The translations under genes and the position numbers were made by a program. The notes beneath the pieces are model-generated. The model was not told the DNA's origin and made no database searches. It saw only the letters and a list, made by a program, of their open reading frames with translations. From the NCBI GenBank assembly GCA_963695855.1, contig CAVOHZ010000010.1, positions 1,280,001 through 1,344,000 on the forward strand: a stretch of DNA of 64,000 nt, read 5' to 3'. This stretch comes from an uncultured Nitrososphaerales archaeon (GTDB lineage Archaea; Thermoproteota; Nitrososphaeria; Nitrososphaerales; Nitrososphaeraceae). Positions within the stretch are counted from its first letter, which is position 1. Each line of letters begins with the position of its first letter. This document shows positions 1,986 through 48,969 of this stretch, one piece after another.

Positions 1986-2068
1986 CAAATCATTTGATAT
2001 AGTAGAGCCTTGATATTATACGGTTCCGGAGGGCTTCGAATTCTCATTATAGCAGGGTTCGATAACAT
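1986..2068 (-). repeat. tRNA(Lys)-like att site, arms L1+R1
   Basis: AGAGCCTTGATATTATA-CGGTTCCGGAGGGCTTCGAA-TTCTCATTATAGCAGGGTTCGATAACAT. Confidence 0.75.
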
Positions 2069-2310
2069 GCTATTTAAATTTCTGAATTTGTCAAAACCAT
2101 TTTTCTCTATAATTTGATTAATATTCCAATCCTTATTTTTCCAGACATGGCTTGCCCATAAATTCTTGGTTAATTCTACTAAATCGGATTTTGCCATTTT
2201 ACGAAGATTTTGTGGCGACAAATTTGATTTAAAATAATTCAAATGGTCCCGGTGGTCTTGCATCTCTTTTTTCCCATTCTCAGAATCAAGCCATTTTTGG
2301 AATTCTATTC
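2069..2310 (-). pseudogene. gene fragment truncated at the att-like site
   Basis: Protein-like frame (KWLDSENGKKEMQDH...NGFDKFR) runs straight into the repeat arm. Confidence 0.4.
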
Positions 2311-2626
2311 AATATTTTTTCAGTATCGTTTTTTCTTCATCTGATGACTTGGCTTGTTGCACAAATGAATTATTGTGGACTTCTTTAAATGATATTCTAA
2401 TTCAACCCATTTAATTGCTAAACAGGAAATTTGAGATAAATAATGACATTTATATTCAGATTTAAAAATACAAAAATGTAGTAATAGAAGGCATGATATT
2501 ACTTTATTACAATGAACTTGACACAATATAGTAGGTATTAACAGGTATCAAATGGAAATAAAAGATAGATAAATGAAAATATAATACCGAACTGTTTATT
2601 AACCCATTTTTTAATTGAATCCCAGA

Positions 2627-3240
2627 ATGGAAGTTCCAAGCTTGAATAAATTTGAAAAACACGATTAAGTAATAAGGTTACATGAGGAAGGAAAGACATA
2701 TAGTGAAATAGCCCATATCGCTCACGTATCGATAAGGGATATAAAACCTATAATAAAAAATATGAAAAATCAACCTTAAAATCAGGTAAAGATAAAAATA
2801 AAAAAAGAAGGTTATCACAAGGTAGTCAGGCTTTCAAGTTATTTCAAGAAGGCAAATCTGCTCTAGATGTAGCCATTATTTTGGATTTAAAATTCAGTAA
2901 AGTTGACATATTATGGAGAGAATATTTATTTTTATCAAGTAACGCAGAATTTTTCTATATTTATGAGGACAATAAACCTCGTATAAACTATTTGCTTAAG
3001 ATAAATCGATTCTTAAAAGAAAACAATATCCCATACAAAAATATTTCTGAAATCTGGCAGACTGCCAATTCCATAAATAATTTGCTTTCTACTTACTCTA
3101 ATCTTAAAGATACAGTAGAAAAATTACAACGGAGTAAAAATAATTTTCAAAATATTAATAATCAAGGTATAATCGAGAGAATACCAAATCCTGGTCCTTG
3201 TCCATATGGACCACCCATCACATGGAGATTTCGAACATAG
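2627..3240 (+). pseudogene. frameshifted HTH-domain protein
   Basis: Upstream frame HEEGKTYSEIAHIAHVSIRDI is HTH-like and out of frame with ORF 2881-3240. Confidence 0.5.
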
Positions 3241-3409
3241 ACAAAGAATCCATCGTGGCATTGTAGGGAAAATTATTGAATTCATTTGTAAAACTCATTT
3301 GTGGAATTATTTCTCTTAAATTAGGAATACCTCGAGTTGGTTTTCCATTAATATTTTGATGAATGATTATTTTAAAGTAATCGTTATTATTGTTTAATAT
3401 TGCTGATGT

Positions 3410-3478
3410 TAGCTGTCTATTAACATCATTACTAATCTCTTCTACCTTTTTCAATACAGTTTCAAGTTTTTGAGGCAT
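3410..3478 (-). pseudogene. N-terminal stub of a putative tyrosine integrase
   Basis: MPQKLETVLKKVEEISNDVNRQL resembles the stubs at 47.0 and 48.8 kb; starts about 60 bp from an att-like core. Confidence 0.5.
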
Positions 3479-3518
3479 TTTAGATGTCTCTCCTTCTTCT
3501 ATTATTACAATACCCATG

Positions 3519-3586
3519 TATATGAACCCCGATATTATACGGGCTCGGAGGTGTGTGAACTGATTTTGACACAATTTTGTAGTTCA
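3519..3586 (-). repeat. tRNA(Lys)-like att site, arms L2+R2
   Basis: TATATGAACCCCGATATTATA-CGGGCTCGGAGG-TGTGTGAACTGATTTTGACACAATTTTGTAGTTCA. Confidence 0.8.
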
Positions 3587-3829
3587 AAAGTATTTAAAAA
3601 AAATTTATAATATTATTGAATATTGCAATAGTCACCCATATTTTAATCTAAATCTAAAAAGATGGATAAAGTAAGTAAGCATTATCTCATTGAGAAATAA
3701 TATTTCTTTTCTAACAAAAAGTAAAATAATCAAAATATGTCATTAAACAAGATTACAGAAGAAAGGGAAAAAGAAAAAGGAGAAAGGGAAAAGGAATAGA
3801 TATGAAATTAAATTTTATAAAATAGTATT

Positions 3830-4489
3830 TTATTCAGGATGACCATGTCCTGCTTGTGGGTTATATGGTATAAAGTAGTTATTTAAGAATCTATGATCAA
3901 TTCCTGCAGATACTATATGTTTATCTTCTGGCATAGGTCCTTTATCTAGTATAAATGCAGCAGGTACTGCTATATGCTTGAACCAAGCAACTAATTCAGG
4001 ATGTTTTTCACCATTGTCCGTTCTTATCAGATCATGATAGTGAACATATCCTTGTTTAGCAAATTCATATGCAGTTGTATTTGTCCAAGGAGCAATTAAA
4101 ACATCAACTACATACAATAACTCATTACCTTTTGCATCAGATGACCACCAATTCTCTTCTCCAAAAGGACCTATATTATAATGTAATCCATACAGGTGAG
4201 TCGGTGAGTTTTGCCACCAATAGTGGCCAGGTGCATCTTTTGTACCATTGGCACCGTCTGCTGGGCCATCAAAATAATATCCTACACCATCCAGTTTAAT
4301 TACTATTCCATGAGTAAAAGTTTGTGAGTTTTGATAATTGGTTTCATTATTAGTAGATGAAGATATTCCAGAGGAATAATCGGTAGTTAAATTTTGGGCA
4401 GATACATTGTTGTTATTATTAGTAATCAAGATTCCTGATATAATTGCAATAGTCGTTATTATGATTATGAAATTTAATGATTTGTTCAT
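3830..4489 (-). CDS. secreted/membrane-anchored His-rich hypothetical protein
   Basis: N-terminal hydrophobic helix; GHYWW, GLHYN, VHYHD, FKH motifs; likely start MNKSL. Confidence 0.7.
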   Translation of the reverse strand: MNKSLNFIIIITTIAIISGILITNNNNNVSAQNLTTDYSSGISSSTNNETNYQNSQTFTHGIVIKLDGVGYYFDGPADGANGTKDAPGHYWWQNSPTHLYGLHYNIGPFGEENWWSSDAKGNELLYVVDVLIAPWTNTTAYEFAKQGYVHYHDLIRTDNGEKHPELVAWFKHIAVPAAFILDKGPMPEDKHIVSAGIDHRFLNNYFIPYNPQAGHGHPE

Positions 4490-4590
4490 GTACTCTAGAA
4501 GAATCAACAATTCTTATAAAACCTTCTTTATCTAATTCATTAAAGAGGTAAAATCTATTTGAGATATCAGAATCCATAGTTAATATTGCA

Positions 4591-6107: not shown

Positions 6108-7100
6108 TAAGTTATCAAATTTAACCAATCAATATTTTTTGTATAATTATGTACAAATTGTTTCAAAAAACTCCAAAAATGATGTGAATGTCCTTGAACT
6201 TTTAGATGGCATAATTCATGTATTATTATATCATCAATAATATCCTCTGGAGCTTTAAATTCCTATTCGATTTTATAGTATCTTTTTTGGGTGGTGTTAA
6301 GTTAATGGAAGAGCTATACCTGTGAATGTTCTATTCTAACAATATATGTTGTTAAGATTTGTCAGAAATAGAACGTCCACTATTATTGTAATGTACTCTT
6401 TGTATTTGTACTTTCTTGGTCTCACTCTACGAAATACATCTAAAGCACTGGAACCTTTTAAGGATAAAAATAGAAGTCATGTACAGTTTGGGAATGGATC
6501 CAACGTTTTGGTTCATTACAGATTTACAAGAGAAAAAGAGTTTAGCATTCATCCTAGATGAAATAATAATTCAGATTGGTAACCAGGATTTCTAGTTGTG
6601 GATCTGTATTCAACCTGTTGAAAAATGTGCTTGCAATCTATATTTCTGAAGAAAGAAACATGTTTGTAGCAGAGAATTTTATCCGATCTCTTGTATCAAG
6701 ATATAGTAGACATACAGTTTACACCGATGGAGGAACATGGTACCCTCAAGCCTGTAATTTTTTACATTTGAAACATAGATTGCATTTACATTTGGATGAG
6801 AGTTTTATAGAAAGGGTAATGCAGTATTTTAAGGATAGAACAGAATCCTTTGATGATTACTATCCATGTATCAACCAAAAGAGAAATTGTGATCTACAAT
6901 ATGTATACGATTGGATCAAACTATTCATTTATCTGTATAACGCAAAAGCTAGAAATACATTTCCATTCAATATTGGAGGTGAAATAATCTTAACTTAACA
7001 GGATCCTTTTTTGGTAACACTTCCCCATCTATTTCTTAAACTCTTTAAGATTATCCTGTTTGGAGTACAATCTTCAATTATTTTACTATATTTTTTTATT
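6108..7100 (-). pseudogene. YgjP/M48-like metallopeptidase remnant interrupted by IS6
   Basis: LRNRWGSVTKK (right of IS) joins APEDIIDDIIIHELCHLKVQGHSHHFW (left of IS). Confidence 0.7.
6290..7005 (+). mobile_element. IS6-family insertion sequence with frameshifted transposase
   Basis: Imperfect 16-bp terminal IR sharing TGTTAAGTTAA; 8-bp flanking direct repeat CTTTTTTG (6282-6289, 7006-7013); DDE motifs LDE, YTDGG, IER in split ORFs. Confidence 0.9.
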
Positions 7101-7138
7101 TTTGTAAAAGTTCTTTTGCTTTTTGACTTAACATGTTA

Positions 7139-7196
7139 ACGGGCTCGGAAGGCTTCGAGTATGACATGCAGTTGGGATCGGTTTTCTGTTATTTTA
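7139..7196 (-). repeat. tRNA(Lys)-like att site, arm R3
   Basis: CGGGCTCGGAAGGCTTCGAGTATGACATGCAGTTGGGATCGGTTTTCT; arm shared with 32288-32342. Confidence 0.75.
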
Positions 7197-7203
7197 TTTT
7201 ACT

Positions 7204-8205
7204 TTATTTTATCGATTTTAAATTCAAAGTATAAACTATATCATTATACCATTTTCTTAAAACTGAATCAGATATTCCTATTGATTTTGCAATTTCTCTT
7301 TGTGTTTTTGTTTTTCCTTTTTTACCGTTATAATCCTCATCAAATTTACAAGCAGCATATACAGTTGAAGCAGCAATTGCTATTGGATTTTTTCCTTCGT
7401 GAATCATATTTCGTTTTACATCTGCCATGATTTGTAATGCTTTACGTTCTGTACTCTCATTTAAATTCATTTTATTTGTTATTTTTATAATACATTTCAT
7501 TGGATCTATAAGAGGTACGGTCTCTAAACCAAATTCAATGACAAGAATTCTATAATAATGTGAAATAGTTCTTATCTTTACATTAGTTGCTTTTGAAATC
7601 TCTTTTAGTGTTGTGGGTCTTTCAAATTCTTTACATGCTAAATAAATTGAAGCAGAAACTATTCCATCCATTGTTCTTCCACGTACAATTCCCAATGTTT
7701 GTGCTTTTTTATAAAAGTAAAATGATTTTTTTATTATAGCATCTGAAATACCAAGTTTGTATTTTAATTTATTCAGTTGTACAAAAGCATATTTTAAATT
7801 TCTGTCTGTTGCATTATTATATCTTGTTCTTTGCTCCAATACTCTCAATTTATTTATAATGTTCTCCATATCTGTTCCAATTTTTCTTCCTGTAGCATCC
7901 ACATTAGTTCTTCCTATGATTGTAGGCGATTCAATATTATAGGGTAGAATATTCCTTGTATTGTGAGACATCAGCTCATTATTAATTACCTGTGCAGTAC
8001 CGTTAACATTGTTCATCTCTTCATAAATTCGTGGTGAAGGACATTCATCATTCTTCTCATCAGATAAAACTTTACCGCATTTAACGCAAATTACTTCTCT
8101 CGTTTCAGGATCGGATATAGTTTTATAATTATCATTACAAATTAAACATAATGATCTTTTATCATTAATATTCTCGATACCATTCTCATAATTGTTATAA
8201 CTCAA
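7204..8205 (-). CDS. tfb: transcription initiation factor IIB (TFB) paralogue
   Basis: Zn ribbon CLIC...CVKCG, GRT.DGIVSASIYLAC, GKNP.AIAA, C-terminal HTH TQREIA. Confidence 0.95.
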   Translation of the reverse strand: MSYNNYENGIENINDKRSLCLICNDNYKTISDPETREVICVKCGKVLSDEKNDECPSPRIYEEMNNVNGTAQVINNELMSHNTRNILPYNIESPTIIGRTNVDATGRKIGTDMENIINKLRVLEQRTRYNNATDRNLKYAFVQLNKLKYKLGISDAIIKKSFYFYKKAQTLGIVRGRTMDGIVSASIYLACKEFERPTTLKEISKATNVKIRTISHYYRILVIEFGLETVPLIDPMKCIIKITNKMNLNESTERKALQIMADVKRNMIHEGKNPIAIAASTVYAACKFDEDYNGKKGKTKTQREIAKSIGISDSVLRKWYNDIVYTLNLKSIK

Positions 8206-8355
8206 TATTATTTAATACGTATAAAGATAATTTATGTATTTAATAGGTCATAAAATATTCAAGTTATTGATATCAATTTTTCATTACAGCAAAACTATCT
8301 TAGTTGAACCATAATTGAACCATCACCTTTAATAGCTCTTGTTTATTGTCAAAAC

Positions 8356-8949
8356 TTACCTTGTTACCGTTTCACAATCTACGGTTTTTCTGTCACCTTC
8401 CAGATTGTTAAAGTTTACTGCGATATCATTTCCTGGTCCACATATATAAAAATCAGCACCTGAATCACCAATCAAGGTATCATTCCCATTCCCTCCTATC
8501 AGTTTATCATCACCTTTATTTCCTTTAAGTATATCATTTCCATCTCCACCATCAAGTAGATCATCTCCTAAATTACCAACTATATCATCATCTCCTGCTC
8601 CACCATACAATTTATCGTTTCCAGAATCACCTATCAGCTCATCTTCACCTTCGTTTCCGTTCAATATATCATAACCCAATCCGCCGAACAAAATGTCATT
8701 GGCTTTTCCTCCATTTATGCAATCATTAGTAATACTTCCATGTATCATCGCTCTTGAAGAAGAAGCATTTATTACTTCATCACATTCGGATATATCAAAA
8801 ATACCTGATAAAGAAGAGGTTTGACCATCTATCGGTAAAGTATTATAAATGCTAAGAATGAATACAATAGAAATAACAATCGCAATTGCTATAGTTAGAA
8901 TAAAGGTAATAGATTTAGTGTAGAAATTTGATGTTATTTTTATTTCCAA
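8356..8949 (-). CDS. RTX/hemolysin-type Ca-binding repeat protein
   Basis: N-terminal TM helix and GGxGxDxL nonapeptide repeats. Confidence 0.9.
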   Translation of the reverse strand: MEIKITSNFYTKSITFILTIAIAIVISIVFILSIYNTLPIDGQTSSLSGIFDISECDEVINASSSRAMIHGSITNDCINGGKANDILFGGLGYDILNGNEGEDELIGDSGNDKLYGGAGDDDIVGNLGDDLLDGGDGNDILKGNKGDDKLIGGNGNDTLIGDSGADFYICGPGNDIAVNFNNLEGDRKTVDCETVTR

Positions 8950-9985: not shown

Positions 9986-11386
9986 ATGAATGATAAAAAA
10001 ATAGTGACGATAAATCCAGCTACTGAGCAAGTTTTAGCAGAGTATGATAGTATGAATAAAGAGCAAGTTGTTGAGATTATAAAAAAATCAAGAAGTGGAT
10101 TTGCACAATGGAGGAAAGATAGTCATAATAGGTCATTTTTTTTACATCAGTTGTCTGAAAAATTACAAACTGATAGAGAAAGACTGGCAAAAATAGCTAC
10201 ACAAGAAATGGGAAAACCAATAAAAGAATCACGAGCAGAATTGGATAAATGTTCATGGGCGATGAATTTTTATGCATATAATGGCGAAATCTTTCTACAG
10301 AATGAGTCATTAAATAGTGATGCAATTAAGACGACAATACTGTTTCAACCACTGGGAATAATCGGGAGTATAATGCCATGGAATTTTCCCTACTGGCAAG
10401 CATTAAGGGTTGCAGCACCCGCGTTGATGACAGGAAATACAATAGTATTGAAACCGTCTAGTACCACACCACAATGTGGAATCGAAATAGAAAATTTGAT
10501 GAAGGAGATAGACTTACCAGAAGGAGTATTTAGTACTTTAGTTGGAAATTCAAGCGTAGGAGAAATATTGATTGATTCAGATATAAATGGGATAACATTT
10601 ACCGGCAGCGTAGAAATTGGTGCAAAGGTTGCACAAAGGGCAACATCTCAACTTAAAAAATGTGTACTTGAGCTAGGTGGAAGTGATCCTTTCATAGTCT
10701 TGGATGACGCAGATATAGACAAATCTGCACTTGGGGCAGTAAAAGGGAGATTTTTAAACTGTGGACAGAGTTGTATTGCTTCAAAACGCTTCATTATAAC
10801 AAAAAACGTTGCCAAAGAATTTATTGAAAAATTTGTAGAAAAAACTGAAGATCTCAAAGTAGGAGATCCGCTGAAAGATGAGACTGATATAGGTCCGCTT
10901 TCAAGCATGAGTAGTATAGAAAAAATCGACATGATGGTTAAGGATGCAATTAGTAAAGGTGGCGAGATATTTACTGGTGGTGATAGGATAGGAGATAAAG
11001 GTGCATTTTATAAACCCACGATAATTGGTAAAGTTACTTCAAACATGCGTGTAGCAAAAGAGGAAACATTTGGACCAGTGGCTCCAATTACAGTTGTAGA
11101 GGATGAAAGTGAAGCCATTAAAATAGCAAATAATTCTGAATTCGGTTTGGGAGCTTGCATATGGACTCAAAATCTAGATAAAGCAGAAACACTATCGGAG
11201 ATGGTAGAATCTGGACTTGTCACTGTAAATAATGTGGTTCGATCAGATCCAAGAATTCCATTTGGGGGTATTAAGCATAGTGGGTTTGGAAGGGAATTAT
11301 CTCGATATGGAATGCTGGAGTTTGTAAATATAAAAACTGTACGGTTCTATGATAGATTAGTCCATGAACACCATAATGTAGAATAG
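9986..11386 (+). CDS. NAD(P)-dependent aldehyde dehydrogenase (succinate-semialdehyde dehydrogenase-like)
   Basis: PWNFP, FTGS, LELGGSDP, GQSC, EETFGP, PFGG motifs. Confidence 0.95.
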   Translation: MNDKKIVTINPATEQVLAEYDSMNKEQVVEIIKKSRSGFAQWRKDSHNRSFFLHQLSEKLQTDRERLAKIATQEMGKPIKESRAELDKCSWAMNFYAYNGEIFLQNESLNSDAIKTTILFQPLGIIGSIMPWNFPYWQALRVAAPALMTGNTIVLKPSSTTPQCGIEIENLMKEIDLPEGVFSTLVGNSSVGEILIDSDINGITFTGSVEIGAKVAQRATSQLKKCVLELGGSDPFIVLDDADIDKSALGAVKGRFLNCGQSCIASKRFIITKNVAKEFIEKFVEKTEDLKVGDPLKDETDIGPLSSMSSIEKIDMMVKDAISKGGEIFTGGDRIGDKGAFYKPTIIGKVTSNMRVAKEETFGPVAPITVVEDESEAIKIANNSEFGLGACIWTQNLDKAETLSEMVESGLVTVNNVVRSDPRIPFGGIKHSGFGRELSRYGMLEFVNIKTVRFYDRLVHEHHNVE

Positions 11387-11469
11387 CACATAATTACTTA
11401 AGTTCTGTTAATTTACTATAAATTCAACTCTTCGTGCATCTCAACTATGAAATGATTTTCAAATGTTTT

Positions 11470-11680
11470 ACCACTATACATAGAAATACAGAATTGTATA
11501 CAGTTATGTATTTGAAACAATTTTCAAATAATGAATGCAAATACTGTTTCAATCCAATCACGTTGCTTACTTGTGGACATCATGTACCATAATCGGTGTA
11601 AACTGGATATTTTCCATATCTTGACACAACTGATCTAATAAATTTTCCGCAACTACATGTTGTAACTTGAGATATAGATT
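11470..11680 (-). pseudogene. IS6 transposase remnant, 3' half (split by the 15.6-kb element)
   Basis: IYIS...FIRSVVSRYGKYPVYTD matches the IS6 at 6576-6998. Confidence 0.75.
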
Positions 11681-11709
11681 TAAGTGACGAATTTGTACTT
11701 TAGATAGAT

Positions 11710-13119
11710 ATGCTGTCTGCCTTGTCTTCGTCGTCGTTAAGAACAACAGCAAGAAAGAAGCTTAAAAAGGACTCATATACGTCCAATTATACCCCTTACG
11801 ACAAGTTTTTTCACTCGATACATAGTGACTCTACGAAAATAATGTATTCTTTTTGTTTAAAAAGGTTCCTAAAGTTCTGCAAATTTACAAAATATGAACA
11901 GTTATTGCAGATTTCTAATAAAAAGAAGGAAGAAGCAATAAGGGACCATATCATGTATTTGTTACACCATGAAAAACTGTCGTATTCAAGCATTAACAAC
12001 ACCGCTGCAGCCATTAAACATTTTTACGTTCTAAATGGAGTACGTCTATTACTTTGGGACGAGTTAAAGAGTCTAAAGGGAAAAAAGAAATCTGTAATAG
12101 TAGATAGAAAATATACTCCTGAAGAACTTAAAACATTAATTGAGTATGCGGACCTGCGTGAAAAAGTAGCAATTCTTACCATGCTTTCTTCGGGGATAAG
12201 GGTTGGTGCACTTGCAGACCTGCGTATTGGTGACCTAACATACAATGAAGAATACAAACTTTACAGGATTGTAGCATACAGTCAAGATACCGCTGAATCG
12301 TATGTAACTTATTGTACCCCCGAATGTGCTAATTATATCAATCTGTATTTGGAAGATAGAAAGAAGGGTGGCGAGACTATCACACCTGATTCACCACTTA
12401 TCACACACAAGATAAATTCAAAATCTATGAACAAAGAAAGTAAGGGTTTCATGGGTTCTCAATCTATTGAAAAGTTGTTGGACCGTGAAAGACATGACGC
12501 TAAGGTAATATCTCGTACTACAATGAAGGAGCTAAAGAAGAGAGTTGCTGCAGAAGAACAGAAGGGTAAGGGTAGTGGTGGTAAGGGTAAGACTAAAGGA
12601 CAATTAATTAGGAAGGAAGTAATGCGTACGCATGGATTTAGAAAAATTTTCGATACTGCATGTGTTGATTATGGTGTTAATCCTGTAATTAAAGAAGTAT
12701 TAATGGGACATAAAACCAAGTTGGGTTTGGATACAAGTTACTACAGACCAGGAGACGAAAATCAACTAATGCAGGAATATCTCAAAGTCATTGACGCATT
12801 AACGATAGACGACACATATAGATTAAGACGTAAGACTGAAAAACTTGAGAAAGAAGTTGAAGAAATCAATCTTTTAAAACGTCAACTTATGGAACTTGAG
12901 AAAGACAAAAAAGAGTATGAAGAAAAGACTAAGAAAGAAATAGACGCATTGTGGGAACTTAATGAAAAGCGGGAAATTGATATTTATAAAGAAGCCGTAG
13001 AATTTGCAACAAAACCAATTTCTTATGAGAAATATAAAGAACGAGAAAAAAGAAAATTAGAAAGAAGAAAGATTAATTTTTTACCAGAAAATAGAAGATG
13101 GAAAAAAATAAAAAAATGA
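11710..13119 (+). CDS. tyrosine recombinase/integrase
   Basis: SSGIRVG (R), HGFR, LMGH, SYY catalytic motifs; C-terminal coiled coil. Confidence 0.95.
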   Translation: MLSALSSSSLRTTARKKLKKDSYTSNYTPYDKFFHSIHSDSTKIMYSFCLKRFLKFCKFTKYEQLLQISNKKKEEAIRDHIMYLLHHEKLSYSSINNTAAAIKHFYVLNGVRLLLWDELKSLKGKKKSVIVDRKYTPEELKTLIEYADLREKVAILTMLSSGIRVGALADLRIGDLTYNEEYKLYRIVAYSQDTAESYVTYCTPECANYINLYLEDRKKGGETITPDSPLITHKINSKSMNKESKGFMGSQSIEKLLDRERHDAKVISRTTMKELKKRVAAEEQKGKGSGGKGKTKGQLIRKEVMRTHGFRKIFDTACVDYGVNPVIKEVLMGHKTKLGLDTSYYRPGDENQLMQEYLKVIDALTIDDTYRLRRKTEKLEKEVEEINLLKRQLMELEKDKKEYEEKTKKEIDALWELNEKREIDIYKEAVEFATKPISYEKYKEREKRKLERRKINFLPENRRWKKIKK

Positions 13120-13201
13120 TTATAAACAATCATTCATTCATTCATTGTAAGAAAAAAACATAAAAAAAATTTAGTAAAATTATAAATTTAATTTAAAAAA
13201 A

Positions 13202-13570: not shown

Positions 13571-13687
13571 TGGTATAGTATAGTTGGTATAATTCTTATT
13601 TAAAGTATATTATTAATGATACGTATAACTTATATACCGATTAGTATAAGTGTAGTCATGGAAAATAGTATATTGGGTACTAATAGC

Positions 13688-14566: not shown

Positions 14567-14607
14567 TGTATATATATACTTAAACTCCTAGTAGTAGTGT
14601 AATACGC

Positions 14608-27505: not shown

Positions 27506-27510
27506 CCAAT

Positions 27511-36110: not shown

Positions 36111-36127
36111 AGATCGTTGCAATTATC

Positions 36128-40224: not shown

Positions 40225-40653
40225 TGAAGCAAACTGTGACTCCTTACATCATCGAAACGATTCTCCATACTAAAGGTTCCTGGGGTAGTCCCTGTCAGCC
40301 CCCTACAGCCGTGCGATAGAAAAGGTAGAGGATACCTTGAACACATTTATAGCCCATCCTCAACTGTTAAGCCAGAAAGAGGTCATTTTCAAGAGCCGTT
40401 ACTTTATATGGGTAACATAAAATAATAAAATGGAGCTCCTTTACATATGAGTTCTTTTTTTTGTAAGTCTAGAATTACCTCATCATTACTATGACTAATA
40501 TTATGTACAGTAAAACTTTGAGCCATTATTTGTTGACAATCGTAATCATGTTGTTACTTGTTTATAAGAACTATGTGTAATAACATGAACAGTACGGAGG
40601 ATATAGGATATAATACCTACCTTTTGAAATTTATTATTATTCTTAAAATAGAT

Positions 40654-41706
40654 TTATAATTTTTGTGGCGTCGTTATCAGTTTTCCAAATAATTGTGATT
40701 CCATCATTTTTATGTGACCCATTACCATATTTTCAAAAGGATAAACTGTATCTATTATTACTTTTAATTTTCCTTTGTTTATCCATTTAATAACTTCATC
40801 TAGTTCTGCACGACTTCCTTGGGTAAATCCAAGAATATTTAGACCTCTAAAGAAGAGATATCTCAAGTCTATTTCTGAATCATATCCTGTTGTTGCTCCT
40901 GTAGATACTAAAGTTCCACCCATTTTTAAGAGGCTAACTTCTTTTGGAAATACAGATTTACCTGTATGTTCAAAAATAACATCTATGCCTCCTTGATTAT
41001 TTGTTAAATTTCTAACTTTCTTGTACCAATCAGGTTCTCTATGGTTTACAACATGATCAGCACCTAATTCAAGACATTTATCCATTTTTTCCTGTGAACC
41101 AGCCGTAGCAATAACATCACAATTGAATAACTTTGCAATCTGAATACCTGCTATTCCCATACCACTTCCGCCTCCCATAATCAAAACGGTTTGCCCTGGT
41201 TGAATATTAGCTCTAGTAACTAACATGTGCCAAGAAGTTACTCCCACCATAGAAATAGCTGCTGCATCTTCAAACGAAACATTATCAGGAACTTTTATAA
41301 CATTGACTTCTGGTAAATATGTATATTGAGCAAATCCTCCCCATAAAGGACCTGTTTGAAAACCCCATACTTGTCTATGACGACAATCATATTCTTTTCC
41401 AGAAGTACATTCCTTACATATTCTACAGGTTAAAGTAGAATGCCCCACTATTCTATCTCCTATTTTAATATCTAAAACATTTTCTCCCACATCTACTACT
41501 GTACCTGAAACATCACTCCCAGAAATGTGAGGAAGAGGAATCTTAATAGGTTCTCCCCATATTCCCCAAAGATCATCATAATTATAAGAAGCTGCTTCAA
41601 CTTTTATAAGAACTTGGTTATGCTTGATTTTCGGAATTTCTATCTCTTCTATTTTTACAACTTTTCTTGGATCTTTATTATGTTCATGATATACAGCTGC
41701 CTTCAT
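40654..41706 (-). CDS. zinc-binding dehydrogenase (MDR family)
   Basis: PHISGSD, CRICKEC...C structural Zn site, GGGSGMG. Confidence 0.92.
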   Translation of the reverse strand: MKAAVYHEHNKDPRKVVKIEEIEIPKIKHNQVLIKVEAASYNYDDLWGIWGEPIKIPLPHISGSDVSGTVVDVGENVLDIKIGDRIVGHSTLTCRICKECTSGKEYDCRHRQVWGFQTGPLWGGFAQYTYLPEVNVIKVPDNVSFEDAAAISMVGVTSWHMLVTRANIQPGQTVLIMGGGSGMGIAGIQIAKLFNCDVIATAGSQEKMDKCLELGADHVVNHREPDWYKKVRNLTNNQGGIDVIFEHTGKSVFPKEVSLLKMGGTLVSTGATTGYDSEIDLRYLFFRGLNILGFTQGSRAELDEVIKWINKGKLKVIIDTVYPFENMVMGHIKMMESQLFGKLITTPQKL

Positions 41707-41980
41707 TTCACTAAAAAATATACAATAGGAAATTTAAAGAATAGGTTTACAAAGTATTAAAAAATAATTATCACAAGAGAAAAAAAAACAATCTGCAACG
41801 ATAAATCTAAAGTAATTTAAAGCAAGAAGGAGATTGTAAAAAATCTGCCTGTTTGTAAATTAAGAGAGTTAATTGGATATCATATCCTCGGTTATTAGTA
41901 ATATATTACAAAATATATTTTGCGTTTGAATTGAATTTAGTTATATAACAAAAACTTATAGCTGTAAAGAGACGATAATC

Positions 41981-42009
41981 AACTGATTTTGACACAAATT
42001 TGTAGTTCA
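41981..42009 (-). repeat. orphan R2 arm
   Basis: AACTGATTTTGACACAAATTTGTAGTTCA. Confidence 0.7.
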
Positions 42010-42192
42010 CAAAAAAGAAATAGTTTATCAAATTTAAGTCTGGCAACATTGCTGCACTGCATTAACTGCAAAATTTACTAATAAAATTTCTTACAGGTGA
42101 TACGTTAGACATTTCGCCAGGGATATCTTCAGATTTATAATTCAATCTAGTAACCTATTTTGTTTCAAAAAATATTATGGTTTTGATTTAAT

Positions 42193-42555
42193 CTAGACAA
42201 TACTTTTACTTACTAATTTTTTGCTTTGCCATAAACCAAAAGTATTTTGTTGCTGATCTTGTAATGTAGCATAAAAACCTTCAGATATCTCCTTTTTGTT
42301 AATTAACATCTTTGCACCTTGTTTTTGAGATTTAGTTATAAAGTCATCTATTGATTCTACCATAATATAAAATGTAGGAGTTTGATTATTTTCTCTTTTT
42401 GAAGTTATTGCTCCTTTTATTCCAGCATTTTTTATTAACCAATACTTTCCTCCTCCTCCTCCTCCTCCACTTTTCTCAAATTTCCAGCCAAACATATTCG
42501 AATAGAATTTTTTTGTTTCTTCAATGTTGTCTGTTGGTATTTCTATATATCTATC
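42193..42555 (-). pseudogene. VOC/glyoxalase family protein, start codon lost
   Basis: YIEIPTDNIEETKKFYSNMFGWKF...NTFGLWQ. Confidence 0.75.
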
Positions 42556-42581
42556 CTATTTGATATAATTACATAATAGTA

Positions 42582-42986
42582 ATGAAACATCAGGTAATCA
42601 TTCCACAATTTGTAAGTAATGAATCTTTTAGAAATTATATTCCGCAAACTGTCAAAATTCAAAAAGGAGATGCTATAACATGGATCAATACGGATAATGA
42701 ATCTCACCATCTATACTTTGTTAAAATTGATCCTGACCCAACAAATATTGAAGTATTAGATGAAAAGCTGTATCTAAACTCTGGAGAATTAGGAGAAGTT
42801 ATTTTTAATTATAATTATGAACGAATAGATTATGTATGTAAAATGCATAGAAGAGAAGTTAATAGTATTACTATTTTTACTGAAGACTATGAAAATATGA
42901 GCAATATTCAAAGATTAAGATATCTTCATAAGAGATATAATATCAAGATTCCCAACCTGTCAAGCTATCTTGATGGAAATAGATAA
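42582..42986 (+). CDS. cupredoxin-fold protein without signal peptide
   Basis: P.TVKIQKGD.ITWIN.D..SH and Y.CKMH motifs. Confidence 0.8.
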   Translation: MKHQVIIPQFVSNESFRNYIPQTVKIQKGDAITWINTDNESHHLYFVKIDPDPTNIEVLDEKLYLNSGELGEVIFNYNYERIDYVCKMHRREVNSITIFTEDYENMSNIQRLRYLHKRYNIKIPNLSSYLDGNR

Positions 42987-43000
42987 TTGGTGTAAATATA

Positions 43001-43759
43001 ATGGCTAATCAGAATATTACAGATAATGATCCTTATTCTAAGGAACAACTAAGTATGTATTTTGATCCATTCATATACAAACATATTAAAGAATTAAAGT
43101 TAGATGGAATCAACCTCAATAAATTCATTATTGTATTTTGGGATATAAGTAAATTTTCTGCCTTAAATAAAGAATTAAAAGCATTAATGAAAAAACGAAT
43201 GAAAAAACATGGTCTTATATTTCATGAACTAGAATACTTATTAAGAGATTATTATAGTGAAGCAACAAGGGTGATAAAAAAAAATAATGGGATATTGGAT
43301 AAATTTATAGGTGATGGAATTTTTGCTTATTTCGGTTACCAAGATAAAAAATTTGATATAGTTTATTCAAAAGCAATGGATGCTGCTTTAGAGTTAAAGA
43401 TGAATTTTATAAAAATTAAGGAAAAACATATGAAAATTTTATATTCTCATTATGATTACAAACCTACTACCAATATAAATTTGAAATGTGCCATGCATAT
43501 TGGTCAAGTTCTGTTTGGATATTGGTATTCGCCTCTTCGAAGTCAGATTACTGCTATTGGAGATGATGTTAATTTCTGTAGTAGACTTGAGGGATTTGCT
43601 GATAATGATCAAATTATCATTTCAAAAGAGTTGAATAATGCATTAAGTAAGATAACTAACAATACATTTAGAACTAAAAAAATAAAAATACCAGATGATA
43701 AGAAATTGAAAACTTATGAACATGTTAATTATGTTTATGAGTTAATAGGCAAAAAATAA
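43001..43759 (+). CDS. class III adenylate/guanylate cyclase
   Basis: FWDISKFS, DKFIGDGI, TAIGDDVNFCSRLE. Confidence 0.92.
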   Translation: MANQNITDNDPYSKEQLSMYFDPFIYKHIKELKLDGINLNKFIIVFWDISKFSALNKELKALMKKRMKKHGLIFHELEYLLRDYYSEATRVIKKNNGILDKFIGDGIFAYFGYQDKKFDIVYSKAMDAALELKMNFIKIKEKHMKILYSHYDYKPTTNINLKCAMHIGQVLFGYWYSPLRSQITAIGDDVNFCSRLEGFADNDQIIISKELNNALSKITNNTFRTKKIKIPDDKKLKTYEHVNYVYELIGKK

Positions 43760-44329
43760 GCAAATTCTAAATTGAATATTTATGAACATTACGATTCAAT
43801 GCTTTTAGTTGAAGGATTTGTTAAAGAAGATGTTATTTTATAATATTGGTTCCCTATTTTGAATTTTGATCAATATATTATATAATTATATACTAGTATA
43901 AGAATACTTAATGTATGCAAATAATTGCAATTCTTTTTGTTATTAGACCTCAATAGTTCCCTAATCGGTATTCATTCAATAATACTCTAGCGAATCATTA
44001 TCTTTACTAAATAATAGCATTGGTTTATCCAAGAGTACATCTGGCTCTGAACCTGATTACATTTGGCTTTTGGAATAGGCTGTTAACTTTTTAATACTTT
44101 TTTGGACTACAAAAATCTTTTTCTAAAAAATTCTAGATAGACATATTTATGAATACCTTTTTTTAATATTCGATTCTGTTCTTTTACTAGTTGTAGAATA
44201 CTGATATTCATTAATTATTTATTTTTAATTATTGTTATTAGCATTATTCTTATTATTATTTTTAAATTATTGAAAGTGTTAAATATACTAAAAAGATAAG
44301 GTTATATTTTATAGTTTTTTATCCACGTT

Positions 44330-44628
44330 TAATTTCTTTCTATATACTTCTCTGGAGATATACAGAACAGGCAATAAAAAAATGTAAGAGACTCTCCAAA
44401 AAGAGTTAATATTTTTAAATCCAAGTTAGAAAATACTGGAGGTAAACTATAGAAACATATTATACGTTTGGTAAATATGATGGGGTATCAATAGTGGAGA
44501 CTCCTAATTATGAAGCATTGATGTGTTGTCTATTGTCTATTGGAAGTCAAGGTAATGCACTTACTGTAACTTTAAAAGCCTTTATCTATGATGAAGCTAC
44601 TAAAATAATTGAGAATATACAACAATAA
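44330..44628 (+). pseudogene. GYD-domain protein, frameshifted
   Basis: YTEQAIK...YYTFGKYDGVSIVE...TLKAF. Confidence 0.7.
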
Positions 44629-44728
44629 TCCAAAACTTTCATTTCGCGTTATTTATATCTTCATATAATCTTGAATTTATTTGTTATAAGAAACAAAAAA
44701 CGCATTGATAATGACATTATTAGAATAT

Positions 44729-44780
44729 GGGGTTCTCAAGGTTTCGATTTCTCATTATGGGAGGGTTTGGTAACATAATA
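44729..44780 (-). repeat. degenerate tRNA(Lys)-like att site, arm R1
   Basis: GGGGTTCTCAAGGTTTCGATTTCTCATTATGGGAGGGTTTGGTAACATAATA. Confidence 0.65.
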
Positions 44781-45254
44781 TTTAAGTTTTGGAATAAAGT
44801 TTATAGCTAATTTCGGTTAATTTTGAAATTCATTGCAATAACAATTCAAAGCAGGACGTGTGAGTTGAAGGCTCAGTTCGCTGTCTTACTTTTTGATTCT
44901 TCATAAGATACCAAATTGAATTGAAGGTATTTTTGGTTTCGAATTTTCAAATTTTTATTAGTCTTGCGCCAGTGGTTATTTTCAGAAAAATTAAGATACT
45001 GATAAATGATATCATGCTGTTGATTTTCAAGTACCAAGATAAAATGAGTTTAATGTACATGTTACAAGATATGCTGATATTTCTGAGTGCAGAATTGATA
45101 TTCAAATGACAATTACTATGATAGACAAATAGATAGATGGAGAATCTAACAAATAAGACTTTGTATAATGACCTAATTCACTACTACACTTTTTAGCCCC
45201 TGCTACTGATTACAAAGATATTCAAAGTAAATAAATATCTGCAAATTTTATTTA

Positions 45255-46562
45255 TTATCTATTCTTAGTTTGGAAACGTATTGGCAAATGTGATAATCCA
45301 AGGAAAAGAGAACTTTTGAGTGGAGTAACTTTAGTATATAGATCTTGTTTACCATTATAATCAAAATTAAGTTGAAGATTATCAAATCTTTCAAGAAGTA
45401 TTCTTAATGCTATTTGTCCTTCAAGTCTAGCTAAAGGAGCCCCTAAACAAAAATGAATTCCAGTTCCAAAAGCCATATGACGTAGGTTTTTCCGAGTAAT
45501 ATCAAATCTTTCAGGATCTATAAATACTGATTCATCATGGTTGGCAGAACCCAAAAATAATATTATCTTTTGACCTTTCTTTATTTCTTGTTTCTCCATT
45601 TCTTTTCCTTCTCCTCTTTTTCCTTCTCCTTCTTCAGATAAAGTTACATCATCATTTGCAATACGAATTACTAATTGTACTGGTGATCGATATCGTAAAG
45701 TCTCTTCTATTGCAGGTTTGATTAAGGAATTTCTATTCTCTTGTAATCTTTTAAATTCTTGAGGATTCTCAAGTAACGAAAAAATCGAATTTCCTATTAG
45801 ATTAACTGTTGTAATATGTCCAGCATTTAAAAGAAGATGAGAAAAAGTAAGTATTTCTTTTTCAGATAACGAATGTCCATCTACTTTAGCTCTAATGATA
45901 CGACTGATAAGATCATCCTCATCATTTGTTGAAGAATTTATCTTTTTTTTTCTCTCTTCTATTAATTTGCCAAAATAAATATCCATTTCATCAATAGTTT
46001 TGGATACTTTTTTAATGTAATCAATATCGCTATTTTCTTCAAGACCTACTATCACATCTGCCCATTGATGGTAAGTATCTCGATCTTCAGATGGTACTCC
46101 AAGGAGTTCTGCAATTACAGTTGCAGGTAAAGGATAAGCAAAATCTGATATCAAGTCCATTGTATTCGTAGTACTATTATTACCATTATTTTTTTCAATG
46201 ATCTTATCAATCAGTTCATTTACAATATTTTCAATATGTGGTTCTAATTTAGATATTTCTATTGGAAAAAATAATGTATCAACAATACTACGCAGCTTTC
46301 TATGATATGGAGGATCTGAGGTTATAAGACTTGGTCGGTGAATATTTTCTTCATATTCGACGGGTGTTCCTAGAGGTAAATCAAGTGGACCAAATTTACT
46401 GGAAAACTTTGAAGGATCTTTTAATATTTTTTCAATATCATTATAACGATATACTCCCCATCGTTCATTTTCTTTATCAAAAACAATGGGATTGTTTTTT
46501 CTCATTGATGAATAAAATTCAAAAGGTGAAAATCTTTGTTCTATTGGAGGATATATTTCCAT
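45255..46562 (-). CDS. cytochrome P450
   Basis: DPPYH, AGHITT, EETLR, FGTGIHFCLG heme motif. Confidence 0.97.
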   Translation of the reverse strand: MEIYPPIEQRFSPFEFYSSMRKNNPIVFDKENERWGVYRYNDIEKILKDPSKFSSKFGPLDLPLGTPVEYEENIHRPSLITSDPPYHRKLRSIVDTLFFPIEISKLEPHIENIVNELIDKIIEKNNGNNSTTNTMDLISDFAYPLPATVIAELLGVPSEDRDTYHQWADVIVGLEENSDIDYIKKVSKTIDEMDIYFGKLIEERKKKINSSTNDEDDLISRIIRAKVDGHSLSEKEILTFSHLLLNAGHITTVNLIGNSIFSLLENPQEFKRLQENRNSLIKPAIEETLRYRSPVQLVIRIANDDVTLSEEGEGKRGEGKEMEKQEIKKGQKIILFLGSANHDESVFIDPERFDITRKNLRHMAFGTGIHFCLGAPLARLEGQIALRILLERFDNLQLNFDYNGKQDLYTKVTPLKSSLFLGLSHLPIRFQTKNR

Positions 46563-46984
46563 ATATTTTATATATAATAGAGATTTATATTTATTTTTAT
46601 TTTTGATAATTTCAGATTTCTTCTTATTGATTGTCTGTCTCTATGTTATAGTTGTTTATATTCTTCAACTTTTTTACATCAATTACATTTAGTTTGTAAT
46701 GAAGCAGAAGAATCCAATATTGAATTGGCAATAAGAGTATAAAATATGTACTACCAGCAAGAGAGATAAAGATCTTCTCATGGAATAATATTATTTTAGA
46801 TAATGAAAATATTTATCGAATTATTAATAACATATATATAAATGAGTGTTGATATTGTAAAAAATAAAATTATTTGTGCACAACCAATTGAATTCATTGT
46901 TAAGAATTAAAATTATTCAATATGACAAGTGCTTCAGAAATGAGATTTCCAAAGGTATTAGAATATTGCAAATAATACTTGGAA

Positions 46985-47197
46985 TTATGCTATAACTTGT
47001 TCTTTCTTCTGTATATTCATAAGATTGTCATCGACAAATTCTGAAAACTTTACAAGAACCTTTAGAATATCACTTTGGTATCGTTCAGACGTCCTAAGAG
47101 CTCTCAAATATTCATAAAACTCAATTAACAGATCTGAATTTGACTTGCTCTCAAGTTTCCTAACTTTTTCTAAAGTATCTATGAGTTTGTAGACATT
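46985..47197 (-). pseudogene. putative integrase N-terminal stub
   Basis: MSTKLIDTLEKVRKLESKSNSDLLIEFYEYL...NIQKKEQVIA*; not in the ORF track. Confidence 0.65.
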
Positions 47198-47231
47198 TTT
47201 GTTAGACCTTCAATATTATATTCCTTCCACC

Positions 47232-47306
47232 AGTATATGAGCCCAATTGGTTGAGGGGTTCGGAGGGCTTCGAATTCTCATTATAACAGGGTTCGGTAAC
47301 ATAATA
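47232..47306 (-). repeat. tRNA(Lys)-like att site, arms L3+R1
   Basis: AGTATATGAGCCCAATTGGTTGA-GGGGTTCGGAGGGCTTCGAA-TTCTCATTATAACAGGGTTCGGTAACATAATA. Confidence 0.85.
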
Positions 47307-47373
47307 TATCAAGGTATTATTATCAAAATGTAACTATCACGTATAGTCATTATTCATTAAAAAGAAACTAAAC

Positions 47374-48264
47374 TTAATATCCTTTGATATGCAATCCTTT
47401 ATCATCATATACAATATCCTTCATCTGAAAAATTTTATATCCATTTTCAAACAAATATTCCATTTCTTTTTCAAATAAATCTGGATTTAGACTGTAATCA
47501 TCATTAGCGTAACTTATTCCGTGATAAATGAGAATAGGAATTGCTCCAATTGTATTTTCAGTATTATATTTGGTTTGACTTTCTACAATGTCTATAAATT
47601 CTTCATACATTTCATCGTCTGAATATCCGCCTGATTTTTTATATGCCTCATGACTTAGTCCAGTTATTGTATACTTTTTGAAATCTAATTGTAATTCATT
47701 TTCATTATTTTTAGTTGAATAATGGGATTGATTTTCGTATTTACCATCATCAGGAAAACCTTCCTCATTTCTACATTGAAATAACATAAGTGGTTCTGAA
47801 GCAGTTCGAGCAATATAGTAATTGTCAGCAATAATTTTTAGTATATTTGTGTCATTATCGCCATCATTAAATGGAATTTAAAAACTGGTTACATTAAATG
47901 CCTTCTCTTGTAGACATCTTTTAGATTCTATAATTTCATATTTCATTTTTTCATCAGATAGTTTGCTCAATTTTTTATGATTCATTGAATGAGAGCCAAT
48001 TTCATGTCCTTCTTCTTCAAGTGTCTGGATATTGTTCCAATTCATTCTATTTTCTTTATCTACAGCATTACAAATTATATAAAATGTTGCCTTAAAATTA
48101 TATTTATCTAAAATTATTTTTGCATAAGTGTACTGGCTTAATCTTCCATCATCAAATGTTATAATTGCTGCTTTAATTGGTTCAGCCAAGGAATAAGAAA
48201 TCAGAACTTGAGAAGATAATAATAAAATTATCACTAAAAATAAGAATCTTGTTAAACAACACAA
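47374..48264 (-). pseudogene. polysaccharide deacetylase, split by a stop codon
   Basis: ITFDDG, EIGSHSMNH and PILIYH in consecutive ORFs. Confidence 0.85.
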
Positions 48265-48648
48265 AGTGAGAATATTAAAAAAAGATATTTATATATTGCT
48301 TTAAATTGATCATGTAAATTATTATAATACTTTATGCCGATAGTCAAATGTACAAATTTAAGTATTAGTATAATTTACAAAAAACATGATTAATGATTCC
48401 ATAATCCTTCTATTTCTTCGTATTTCTAAATATTGAAGTTCCTCTCGTTCTTTTTGTATTTGTAATTTCATTATTATCTAATAATCCCTTTATTCTGATT
48501 TTTTAATTGTCTTATCATATCCCAAATTGAATTTGGTTTAAATAGTCAGTCAGTAGTAAGGTTACAAACTAATCTTGCATTGAGTTCATTTTTGCAGGGA
48601 TGTTCATTTAGCCAATCAGGTACATAAGGTGGTGAAAATGTTGAAGGA

Positions 48649-48854
48649 ATAATCTGTTCTTTCTTCTGTATATTCATGAGGTTGTCATTGATAAATTCTG
48701 AAAACTTTACAAGAACCTTTAGAATGTAACTTTGATATCTTTCAGCGGTTCTAGCGCTTCTCAAATATTCATAAAACTCAATTAACAAATCTGAATTTGA
48801 CTTATTTTCTAGTTTCCTAACTTTTTCTAAGGCATCTTTAAGTTTTGTACGCAT
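48649..48854 (-). pseudogene. putative integrase N-terminal stub
   Basis: Paralogue of 46985-47197; homology ends at KKEQII. Confidence 0.65.
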
Positions 48855-48894
48855 TTCTTTATTAGATGACCTCCATCATTATCTTCCACTTACT

Positions 48895-48969
48895 AGTATA
48901 TGAGCCCAATTGGTTAGCGGGTTCGGAGGGCTTCGAATTCTCATTATAACAGAGTTCGGTAACATAATA
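48895..48969 (-). repeat. tRNA(Lys)-like att site, arms L3+R1
   Basis: Near-identical to 47232-47306. Confidence 0.85.

Follow-up and report, generated by a model that had tools for sequence, protein, structure and literature searches.

Sites derived from tRNA-Arg and the island that holds them

The DNA analyzed here is a 64,000-nt stretch (the window) of contig CAVOHZ010000010.1 (C10, positions 1,280,001 to 1,344,000) in assembly GCA_963695855.1, an uncultured Nitrososphaerales genome of 3.55 Mb in 11 contigs with about 31% G+C (G000). As this genome encodes archaeal amoA, TFB, and PriX, its source is an ammonia-oxidizing archaeon. In the window, genes are separated by short sites, each made of an R1, R2, or R3 arm that precedes a core, a 12- to 19-nt copy of the 3' end of a tRNA-Arg(TCG) gene (table 1). 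Coordinates carrying a contig name refer to that contig and all others to the window. About 13 same-orientation sites had been listed in the first-pass annotation of this sequence; all 13 are present, on the minus strand. The adaptive gene blocks that it placed between them are confirmed by Pfam: TFB, ABM, MFS, PNPOx (PPOX), P450, cyclase, and a deacetylase fragment. Both strands carry cassette genes: the plus strand those for ABM, MFS, PNPOx, and the cyclase, and the minus strand the alcohol dehydrogenase (ADH), P450, SnoaL, and TFB genes.

A strict search with the 20-mer core, allowing up to three mismatches, returned five copies in the window, all on the minus strand, and none in 100 shuffles. 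Profiles built with nhmmer from the R1, R2, or R3 arms plus the core recovered 12 of the 13 sites at E ≤ 1e-11. The remaining one, near 36770, had been called very degenerate and has indeed the weakest score of the 13 (E = 0.0014). No further site was found in the window by profile, even at E values up to 50. As neither Rfam at gathering thresholds nor ARAGORN, which searches for tRNAs, reported a match in the window, the sites are fragments and not genes or known RNAs. The pairings of R arms with the L sequences that follow the core were also seen as listed: R1-L1 at 2021, R2-L2 at 3540 and 29354, R3-L1 at 32288, and R1-L3 at 47255 and 48918.

The consensus core is identical, over 19 of 19 nt, to the 3' end of the tRNA-Arg(TCG) gene (C10:1147352-1147426, plus strand) located 133 kb before the window. 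Comparison with the tRNA set of the genome thus provides the match that the proposed tRNA origin called for, and only the suggested tRNA-Lys identity has to be abandoned. The tRNA-Arg(TCT) gene differs from the core at one position, and tRNA-Lys(CTT) fits less well, the CGAACCC variant at 47255 and 48918 being nevertheless that of the tRNA-Lys(CTT) acceptor strand. The length in common with the tRNA depends on the arm: 19 nt at R1 and R3 sites, and the last 12 nt only at R2 sites.

The limits first given to the array, 1986 to 48969, do not hold, since sites continue far past them: the window is part of an island of about 215 kb, in which the array spans C10:1147408-1361890. Genome-wide, 42 profile sites pass E ≤ 1e-3 (the threshold used for genome counts), including 12 of the 13 window sites, and 32 of the 42 lie in the island (C10:1152055-1361890), about 6% of the genome. 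Four of the five plus-strand sites of the island follow and adjoin the tRNA, reaching C10:1169967; then come 27 minus-strand sites (C10:1176667-1358997), the 13 window sites among them, and a single plus-strand site at C10:1361890. This order suggests that an island segment of about 185 kb was inverted, so that the window sites would now face away from the tRNA. A weak indication in the same direction comes from the relative G012, where the orthologous tRNA is followed by a short array whose neighboring gene has its match, in reverse orientation, at 1375-1376 kb of G000. The island also contains insertion sequence (IS) copies. A repeat family of about 690 nt, with 70-88% identity between members, occupies window positions 6309-7001, at least six other places in the island, and places elsewhere in the genome; its open reading frames (ORFs) at 6346-6561 and 6660-6998 have no Pfam match and the look of a decayed IS.

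Table 1. Sites, cassette genes, and decayed units of the array in the window (E values from nhmmer; core fractions are identities with the 3' end of tRNA-Arg(TCG))
Feature	Position	Strand	Description
Site 1	2020-2079	-	R1 arm and core (16/19 nt), then L1; E = 3.4e-17
99-aa ORF	3218-3517		After the L2 of Site 2; first ~25 residues resemble an integrase N-terminus by eye
Site 2	3539-3589	-	R2 arm and 12-nt core (12/12), then L2; E = 2.7e-16
Site 3	7138-7216	-	R3 arm and core (18/19); closes TFB/RTX cassette; E = 6.4e-19
TFB and RTX-repeat genes	7204-8748	-	TFB (TFIIB-repeat) gene 7204-8016, RTX-repeat gene 8356-8748; Pfam
Plasmid- or virus-like block	9986-27795		~18 kb in one inter-site segment; Pfam
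XerA-like integrase	11710-13119	+	In plasmid-like block
Site 4	27796-27853	-	R1 arm and decayed core; E = 2.3e-14
RTX-repeat gene	28533-29258		Downstream of Site 5
Site 5	29353-29399	-	R2 arm, core (TTCTGAGCCCG), and L2; E = 1.8e-12
Multi-module segment	29400-32285		114-aa gene, 65-aa gene, SnoaL, two unknowns
Site 6	32286-32368	-	R3 arm, core (18/19), and L1; E = 1.1e-17
ABM gene	33374-33763	+	In cassette next after Site 7
Site 7	33792-33841	-	R2 arm and 12-nt core (11/12); closes MFS cassette; E = 9e-13
MFS gene	34048-35685	+	Cassette closed by Site 7
Site 8	36127-36178	-	R2 arm and 12-nt core (12/12); closes PNPOx cassette; E = 1.9e-16
PNPOx gene	36256-36681	+	Cassette closed by Site 8
Site 9	36772-36841	-	Degenerate, R3-type; long R3 arm homology to ~36940; E = 0.0014
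PG_binding-domain protein	37321-40224	+	967 aa
Zinc ADH	40654-41706	-	
Site 10	41969-42012	-	R2 arm, decayed core; closes cyclase/Cu-binding/100-aa cassette; E = 7.9e-12
Cyclase/Cu-binding/100-aa cassette	42193-43759	cyclase +	Closed by Site 10
Site 11	44729-44786	-	R1 arm and decayed core; closes P450 unit; E = 3.5e-13
Decayed integrative unit	45255-47254	-	L3, integrase N-terminal stub 46988-47188, P450 45255-46562
Site 12	47255-47312	-	R1 arm, core (17/19), and L3; E = 1.2e-19
Decayed integrative unit	47313-48916	-	L3, deleted integrase ORF 48546-48854, deacetylase fragment 47878-48045, 137-aa ORF
Site 13	48917-48976	-	R1 arm, core (18/19), and L3; E = 1e-18

An intact integrase-bearing unit and the anatomy of a site

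At the head of the array, an intact ORF (C10:1147485-1148795) starts 58 nt past the tRNA/core and encodes a 436-aa tyrosine recombinase that we named IntArg. The full-length cognate integrase anticipated in the first-pass annotation is therefore present, next to the matching tRNA. IntArg belongs to an intact 4.6-kb unit that also encodes two small proteins without Pfam match and a SIR2-like protein, and that ends with an R1 arm and a core. The unit is bounded by a direct repeat: the tRNA end at C10:1147426 and the next core (C10:1152037-1152055) are on the same strand and identical over 19 of 19 nt. Its attachment (att) site lies outside the integrase ORF, unlike that of the SSV-type "suicidal" integrases. 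We found no replication module (primase or helicase) in this unit by Pfam. From the outer edge of the R1 arm onward, C10:1151998-1156400 is 100% identical over 4,403 bp to part of contig C7 (C7:1-10052); left of that edge, C7 carries different DNA, with a beta-lactamase-fold/BTRD1 protein and an IS copy. The C7 sequence could come from another copy of the region, from a variant in the population, or from a fork in the assembly.

Against PF00589, IntArg scored 28.1 bits in one search, above the cut-off, and 26.3 bits in another (cut-off 27.1). Across 120 IntArg homologs, R180, K208, Y295xxR298, W320, and Y330 are invariant or nearly so, and a motif of four cysteines at the C-terminus is also conserved; by comparison with the tyrosine-recombinase motif, the residues from R180 to Y330 would constitute the catalytic set. 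A sequence search of the PDB with IntArg gave only a chance zinc-ribbon match to eL40. The family has 1,686 members at E ≤ 1e-10, and every named member is from Nitrososphaeraceae.

Co-oriented sites parting short cassettes are also a feature of integrons, which are known in Archaea (Ghaly et al., 10.1101/2022.02.06.479319). According to the part of this literature available to us, the arrays further share with integrons, and with clusters of attC sites lacking an integrase (CALINs), a single site at the end of each cassette, an order of cassettes that varies between genomes, and a scarcity of integrases relative to sites. A true integron or CALIN, with an IntI-type integrase and attC sites, has nevertheless a negligible probability. 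IntArg has no match to TIGR02249 and matches only XerA, weakly (28 bits for a cut-off of 220), and the unrelated integrase encoded in the plasmid-like block of the window scores 25.7 bits for a cut-off of 265. Six site strands folded as single-stranded DNA gave weak structures (-2.5 to -7.9 kcal/mol, z from -0.2 to -2.4), and the cassette genes lie on both strands. Unlike attC, the sites are copies of a tRNA 3' end of the double-strand type, and the integrase gene is carried by a mobile unit and not by a fixed platform. What stands of the proposed comparison with integrons is the outcome, co-oriented cassettes, here with tRNA 3' ends as cores.

Two cassettes of the window retain traces of an integrase. 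The L3 sequence found next to the cores at 47255 and 48918 also follows the tRNA; in both cassettes an integrase stub comes after it. The first stub corresponds to IntArg residues 4-70, with 63% identity; in the second, an internal deletion joins residues 1-69 to residues ~192-222. The 99-aa ORF after Site 2 gave no significant BLAST match. The cassettes had been proposed to be small, non-autonomous, and stacked. The stacking is retained; a non-autonomous origin does not apply to at least two cassettes of the window, which are the decayed remains of elements that carried an integrase.

Three right and three left arms had initially been distinguished. The R arms are confirmed; the L side is mostly not conserved, since 279 of the 390 sites from all genomes examined have an L side outside the four L families. 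What is conserved is thus an R arm with a core, present once per unit at its end. In G000, the sequences at the two ends of inter-site segments are paired in an orderly way: L3...R1 three times, including the intact unit, L2...R1 twice, and L1...R2 twice. It follows that the R arm belongs to the unit before the core and that the next unit begins with L. The mixed R/L pairings result from the stacking of unlike units, and the arm swapping at the core put forward previously, a special reshuffling, is not needed. Four R2 arms with their cores are identical in G000 over at least 47 nt, in the midst of unrelated cassettes. Among the seed sites, 7 of 10 R1 and 8 of 11 R3 sites contain a second CCGANCCC, 33 nt upstream of the one in the core; these paired copies might be repeated binding sites of the putative integrase.

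The T-stem of tRNA-Arg(TCG) in G000 (C10:1147400-1147426) and in the relative G037 reads GTGGG/CCCTC, which creates a U-U mismatch at 50-64. In G026 it reads GGGGG and forms a G-U pair (compared loci L127:10030-10057 and L129:1-30). Because of this difference, the 3' half of the tRNA-Arg(TCG) gene may be an element-borne copy.

Arrays, cassettes, and breakpoints in related genomes

The R2 arm was found in 6 of the 61 family genomes searched, G000 included, and in three of five congeners. In one of the latter, the sister species G048, contig C11 carries 29 sites over 100 kb, all 29 on one strand; as for integrases, this array contains N-terminal stubs only. The orthologous tRNA-Arg genes of G048 and G059 were not found whole. 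Scanning species-representative genomes with a 19-nt R2 word yielded at least 115 loci with 338 sites, in which all 93 multi-site loci are co-oriented. Seven of these loci contain an integrase match, and in all seven the gene begins 46-73 nt past an R2 site that has the same orientation. They come from 21 Nitrososphaerales or Nitrososphaeraceae assemblies, seven stretches labeled as bacterial, and one oddly labeled contig. The scan of relatives proposed at first therefore reveals the same architecture in G048 and in the 21 assemblies among the loci listed. Six of the bacteria-labeled stretches have a single profile site and the seventh has none. We removed these seven, four duplicates of G048 C11, and two odd loci, which left 102 loci and 305 sites. 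In this filtered set 85 of 85 multi-site loci are co-oriented, and the median spacing between sites is 1,373 bp, a value biased downward because loci were limited to 8 kb and selected by R2. Eight co-oriented R1/R2 sites with 27-35% G+C are present in L072 and L122, the first 16 kb of a 483,732-bp contig labeled as belonging to a metagenome-assembled genome (MAG) of a beta proteobacterium; this contig looks mis-binned or chimeric rather than like a bacterial array.

The conserved element has a small size, several minus-strand arms have TATA-like AT-rich boxes in front of them (seen by eye), and a gene starts after some sites. These features would suit a tRNA-derived repeat comparable to a miniature inverted-repeat transposable element (MITE) or a short interspersed element, or the shared promoter or 5' leader of a paralogous gene family. 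Both are very improbable. Random orientation and MITE-like scatter, which would have spoken against an array, are not what we observed: the genome's sites concentrate beside the matching tRNA (32 of 42 in 6% of the genome) and multi-site loci are uniformly co-oriented. Site alignments show by eye neither terminal inverted repeats nor target duplications. Downstream genes belong to unrelated families on either strand, and this diversity, the tRNA match, and the clustering led us to drop the promoter or leader reading.

Comparison with the sister species provided information on insertion boundaries. G048 C11:1-85 kb is syntenic with G000 at 1192-1274 kb, with 92-96% identity. The window region is not syntenic with G048 and has only single cassettes in common with it. 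Among 12 indels larger than 500 bp between G000 and G048, eight have a site at or inside them, which is only suggestive. One clean example is a 3.26-kb cassette lying between two R2 sites in G000, in place of which G048 has one hybrid site; the switch between flanks occurs at the arm/core junction. Alignment of the window with the at least 115 loci gave 61 high-scoring segment pairs (HSPs), whose 122 ends form 53 clusters. Eight of these clusters lie within 15 bp of a core for 0.64 expected (binomial P = 2.5e-7), a test that is not clean, as the loci were chosen for their R2 arm and the four G048 duplicates were kept. Six further clusters coincide with outer arm edges, and 39 are more than 47 bp from a core. 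The expectation that breakpoints would fall on cores is thus borne out by the eight clusters and by the clean 3.26-kb indel, and contradicted by the 39 distant clusters.

Cassettes recur one by one. The TFB, 114-aa, MFS, PNPOx, ADH, cyclase-block, and deacetylase modules are each found alone elsewhere and in other orders. At Site 8, 12 cross-genome HSP ends cluster at 36128. The PNPOx cassette has an R2 end in six of seven loci, and the preceding site is R3 in five of the seven and R1 in two. The deacetylase cassette keeps its R1 and is devoid of integrase stub in three MAG loci (L015, L109, and L114). Cassettes such as these two keep their own R type while the upstream neighbor varies. In locus L040, where homology begins at window position 7141 in Site 3, the TFB and RTX-repeat pair forms one cassette between two sites. 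The modules of the segment between Sites 5 and 6 are separate cassettes in other genomes. The ADH module recurs in seven loci and has a second copy in G000. A 1.95-kb module lies inside the G048 array by an R3 site (C11:111739-113687); its 94% identical copy in G000 (C10:337097-339091) is 810 kb away from the island, beside a solitary R1 site.

Other genes of the window deserve mention. The plasmid- or virus-like block encodes an aldehyde dehydrogenase, a DEAD-like helicase, a PriX-domain protein, and a 674-aa protein without family, and contains tandem 87-nt and 24-nt repeats near 15.8-16.2 kb. A direct-repeat search for its own att site gave nothing convincing. The MFS and PG_binding genes have 39-40% G+C (window 34001-36000 and 38001-40000) for about 29% around them, and a PG_binding-domain protein is odd in an archaeon without murein. 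A recent bacterial import of the MFS cassette was considered and is not supported, because its best 120 relatives, 82-100% identical, are all from Nitrososphaeraceae when named.

Other tRNA genes of G000 also head runs of co-oriented partial 3' copies. The tRNA at C8:91508-91603 has 12 plus-strand copies over 80 kb (C8:91508-172064) and 28 copies genome-wide at up to two mismatches. Four minus-strand copies of tRNA-Val(TAC) are spread over 36 kb (C10:1667365-1703207). The tRNA at C8:2734-2821 has 15 copies and is directly followed by the gene of an IntArg paralog (58% identity).

Probable serial capture and decay, and possible remobilization

Several cores of the window have no mismatch or a single one, and the cores shared with G048 are degenerate. 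In four orthologous G000/G048 pairs, nine differences were counted by hand in 76 nt, for a background of about 7%. As shared cores diverge no more slowly than the background, old sites are not maintained. This pattern fits sites that would be good on arrival and then decay neutrally.

We compared window positions 29001-49000 with contigs of four soil metagenome runs from four studies. Fractions of 0.16-0.43 of the sampled words were present in the metagenome runs screened. Four joints fall at or near sites: 32289 to 36130, 33840 back to 32176, 48986 back to 47256, and 47183 to 48841. The best-supported loose contig ends lie at arm edges (29364, 29399, 36124/36128, 36173, 41974, and 47308). We did not count these joints as evidence of excision, because the arms are repeats, the shorter sides measure 25-81 nt, and paralogous sites may be involved. 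The soil contigs show only that the arms occur in many other soil contexts. Runs X2 and X10 have no cover of 37.7-40.3 kb.

We consider it likely that the island results from integrase-driven serial capture at tRNA-Arg(TCG) followed by decay, which would make it a tycheposon-like island, integron-like in outcome without being an integron. The elements captured would be small units, with the gene of a lineage-specific tyrosine integrase just inside one end and an R arm with the last 12-19 nt of the tRNA at the other. Such a unit would recombine at the 3' end of the tRNA or at any of the cores that the array already contains; with every event, the array would gain one unit and one co-oriented core. 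Integrase genes would then be deleted or decay, leaving cassettes of one to few cargo genes with their own R arm and core. Young sites in the window would thus keep near-perfect cores, and old sites in common with the sister species would have decayed. In favor of this reading are the intact unit at the matching tRNA, the conserved residues of IntArg, the integrase stubs after L3 and the integrase genes past R2 sites, the clustering and common orientation of the sites, the 3.26-kb indel and the homology ends at cores, the constant R type of cassettes with varying neighbors, the second CCGANCCC in R1 and R3 arms, and the similar arrays headed by other tRNAs.

Several observations weigh against serial capture followed by decay. 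Integrases are rare in arrays, with matches in 7 of the 115 loci listed, which the decay of autonomous units alone explains poorly. In G037, no integrase and no array lie within 7.6 kb of the orthologous tRNA. The junction between C7 and C10 is at the outer edge of the R1 arm and not at the core, which fits homologous exchange between arms. The divergence of the cores shared with G048 equals or exceeds that of the DNA around them, only 2 of the 12 indels larger than 500 bp are cleanly site-bounded, and most homology-end clusters are distant from cores. Many module boundaries, for example at 29837, 35776, and 40654, have no recognizable site. Finally, contigs of the four soil runs contain no unambiguous circular or empty-site junction.

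The scarcity of integrases would be accounted for by a living cassette system, in which integrase-less cassettes would be excised as circles and reinserted in trans at any core, the tRNA 3' end acting as attI. We regard this as possible, leaning slightly against it. In its favor, each cassette has one conserved site, at its end, and a mostly unique L side (279 of 390); integrase matches in 7 of the 115 loci listed compare with 338 sites; and full-length integrases of the family exist in the genome. Single cassettes occur in different orders and behind different neighbors across genomes, and the four identical R2 copies amid unrelated cassettes are also to be expected. Moreover, many spacings are too short for an integrase gene, as the median of 1,373 bp in MAG loci indicates, with the downward bias of 8-kb loci. 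Judged from these sequences, trans-mobilization of integrase-less cassettes is plausible. However, no excision product was seen in the soil contigs, old cores decay (9 of 76 nt, hand count), and the genes of the cassettes, found on both strands, follow no shared promoter logic. In addition, autonomous units reduced by deletion can be seen directly at 47255 and 48918, and homologous recombination between arms of 35-80 nt could also reorder cassettes.

At the other extreme, the island could be a pure fossil bed, the debris of tandem autonomous elements reordered by homologous recombination, deletion, and inversion, with the intact unit at the tRNA as the only mobile element. Integrase stubs, decayed cores in the region shared with G048, the many module boundaries without sites, the C7/C10 junction at an arm edge, and the IS copies and putative large inversion of the island all agree with it. 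We nevertheless find it unlikely. R1, R2, and R3 join the same L sequences exactly at the 12- to 19-nt core, a junction whose shortness and precision do not suit homologous exchange. More homology ends than expected fall at cores, and near-perfect cores and arms occur in integrase-less cassettes.

Serial capture at tRNA-Arg(TCG) has its closest known counterpart in the tycheposon islands of Prochlorococcus, in which tRNA genes are the seeds of serial integration (Hackl et al., 10.1101/2020.12.28.424599), and the likeness noted in the first-pass annotation extends to the tRNA seed, serial units, integrase fragments, and partial-tRNA borders. As far as the accessible part of that description goes, both systems have an inward-facing tyrosine integrase at one end, neighbors parted only by a partial tRNA copy, scattered integrase fragments with extra partial tRNAs, and adaptive or defense cargo. 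Here, however, the islands belong to an archaeon, and the integrases form a clade restricted to Nitrososphaeraceae, judging by named relatives. Units measure 0.6-5 kb and not the 10-20 kb given in the same account, are far more numerous per island (at least 33 sites here), and each end in one of three conserved R arms. The intact unit would not count as a tycheposon as defined, and it has no replication module that we could find.

Archaeal tyrosine recombinases target the 3' part of tRNA genes, and thaumarchaeal att sites are short, according to the sections at hand of two sources (PMC6563490; PMC8371274). Those sections describe thaumarchaeal elements in tRNA genes, with tandems of two (Krupovic et al. 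2019, PMC6563490), and tandem integration, loss of the integrase gene after integration, and "gene capture" at tRNA genes (Badel et al. 2021, PMC8371274). The island shares with archaeal gene capture, as presented there, the tRNA 3' target, integrase loss, and tandem insertion at one locus, but the tandems described in those sections comprise few multi-gene elements, not dozens of single-gene-scale cassettes in a family-wide pattern. Genomes like that of Nitrosocosmicus were not part of the 2019 survey, in which this name has 0 occurrences (PMC6563490). Islands flanked by integrases have been reported in skin ammonia-oxidizing archaea (2026, PMC13245735), with tRNA detail absent from the available portion of the report. 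Our full-text searches of the literature gave no description of such arrays in these archaea, although supplementary tables of the 2019 survey may list related elements.

We tentatively propose, with a confidence somewhat below even, that a cassette economy, comparable in logic to integrons but made of other parts, operates throughout the soil ammonia-oxidizing Nitrososphaeraceae, in which single-site cassettes captured at tRNA genes or at any existing core would be moved by a trans-acting integrase clade and exchanged between genomes, with several arrays per genome. The tRNA genes at the head of arrays in G000 include at least Arg(TCG), Val(TAC), and one on C8. The genomes of soil ammonia-oxidizing archaea are unusually large for this group, and little is known of the way in which accessory genes are gained. 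If the proposal is true, arrays would make up a sizeable share of the accessory genome, and one grammar, a tRNA tail with a short arm and one integrase clade, would explain the stacking, shuffling, and sharing of genes across the family. The genes so moved would include TFB paralogs, transporters, redox enzymes, signaling genes, and defense-like genes. Such arrays would be easy to find by profile search, and their three arm types, two core lengths, and tRNA target would provide a natural set of substrates for an archaeal integrase.

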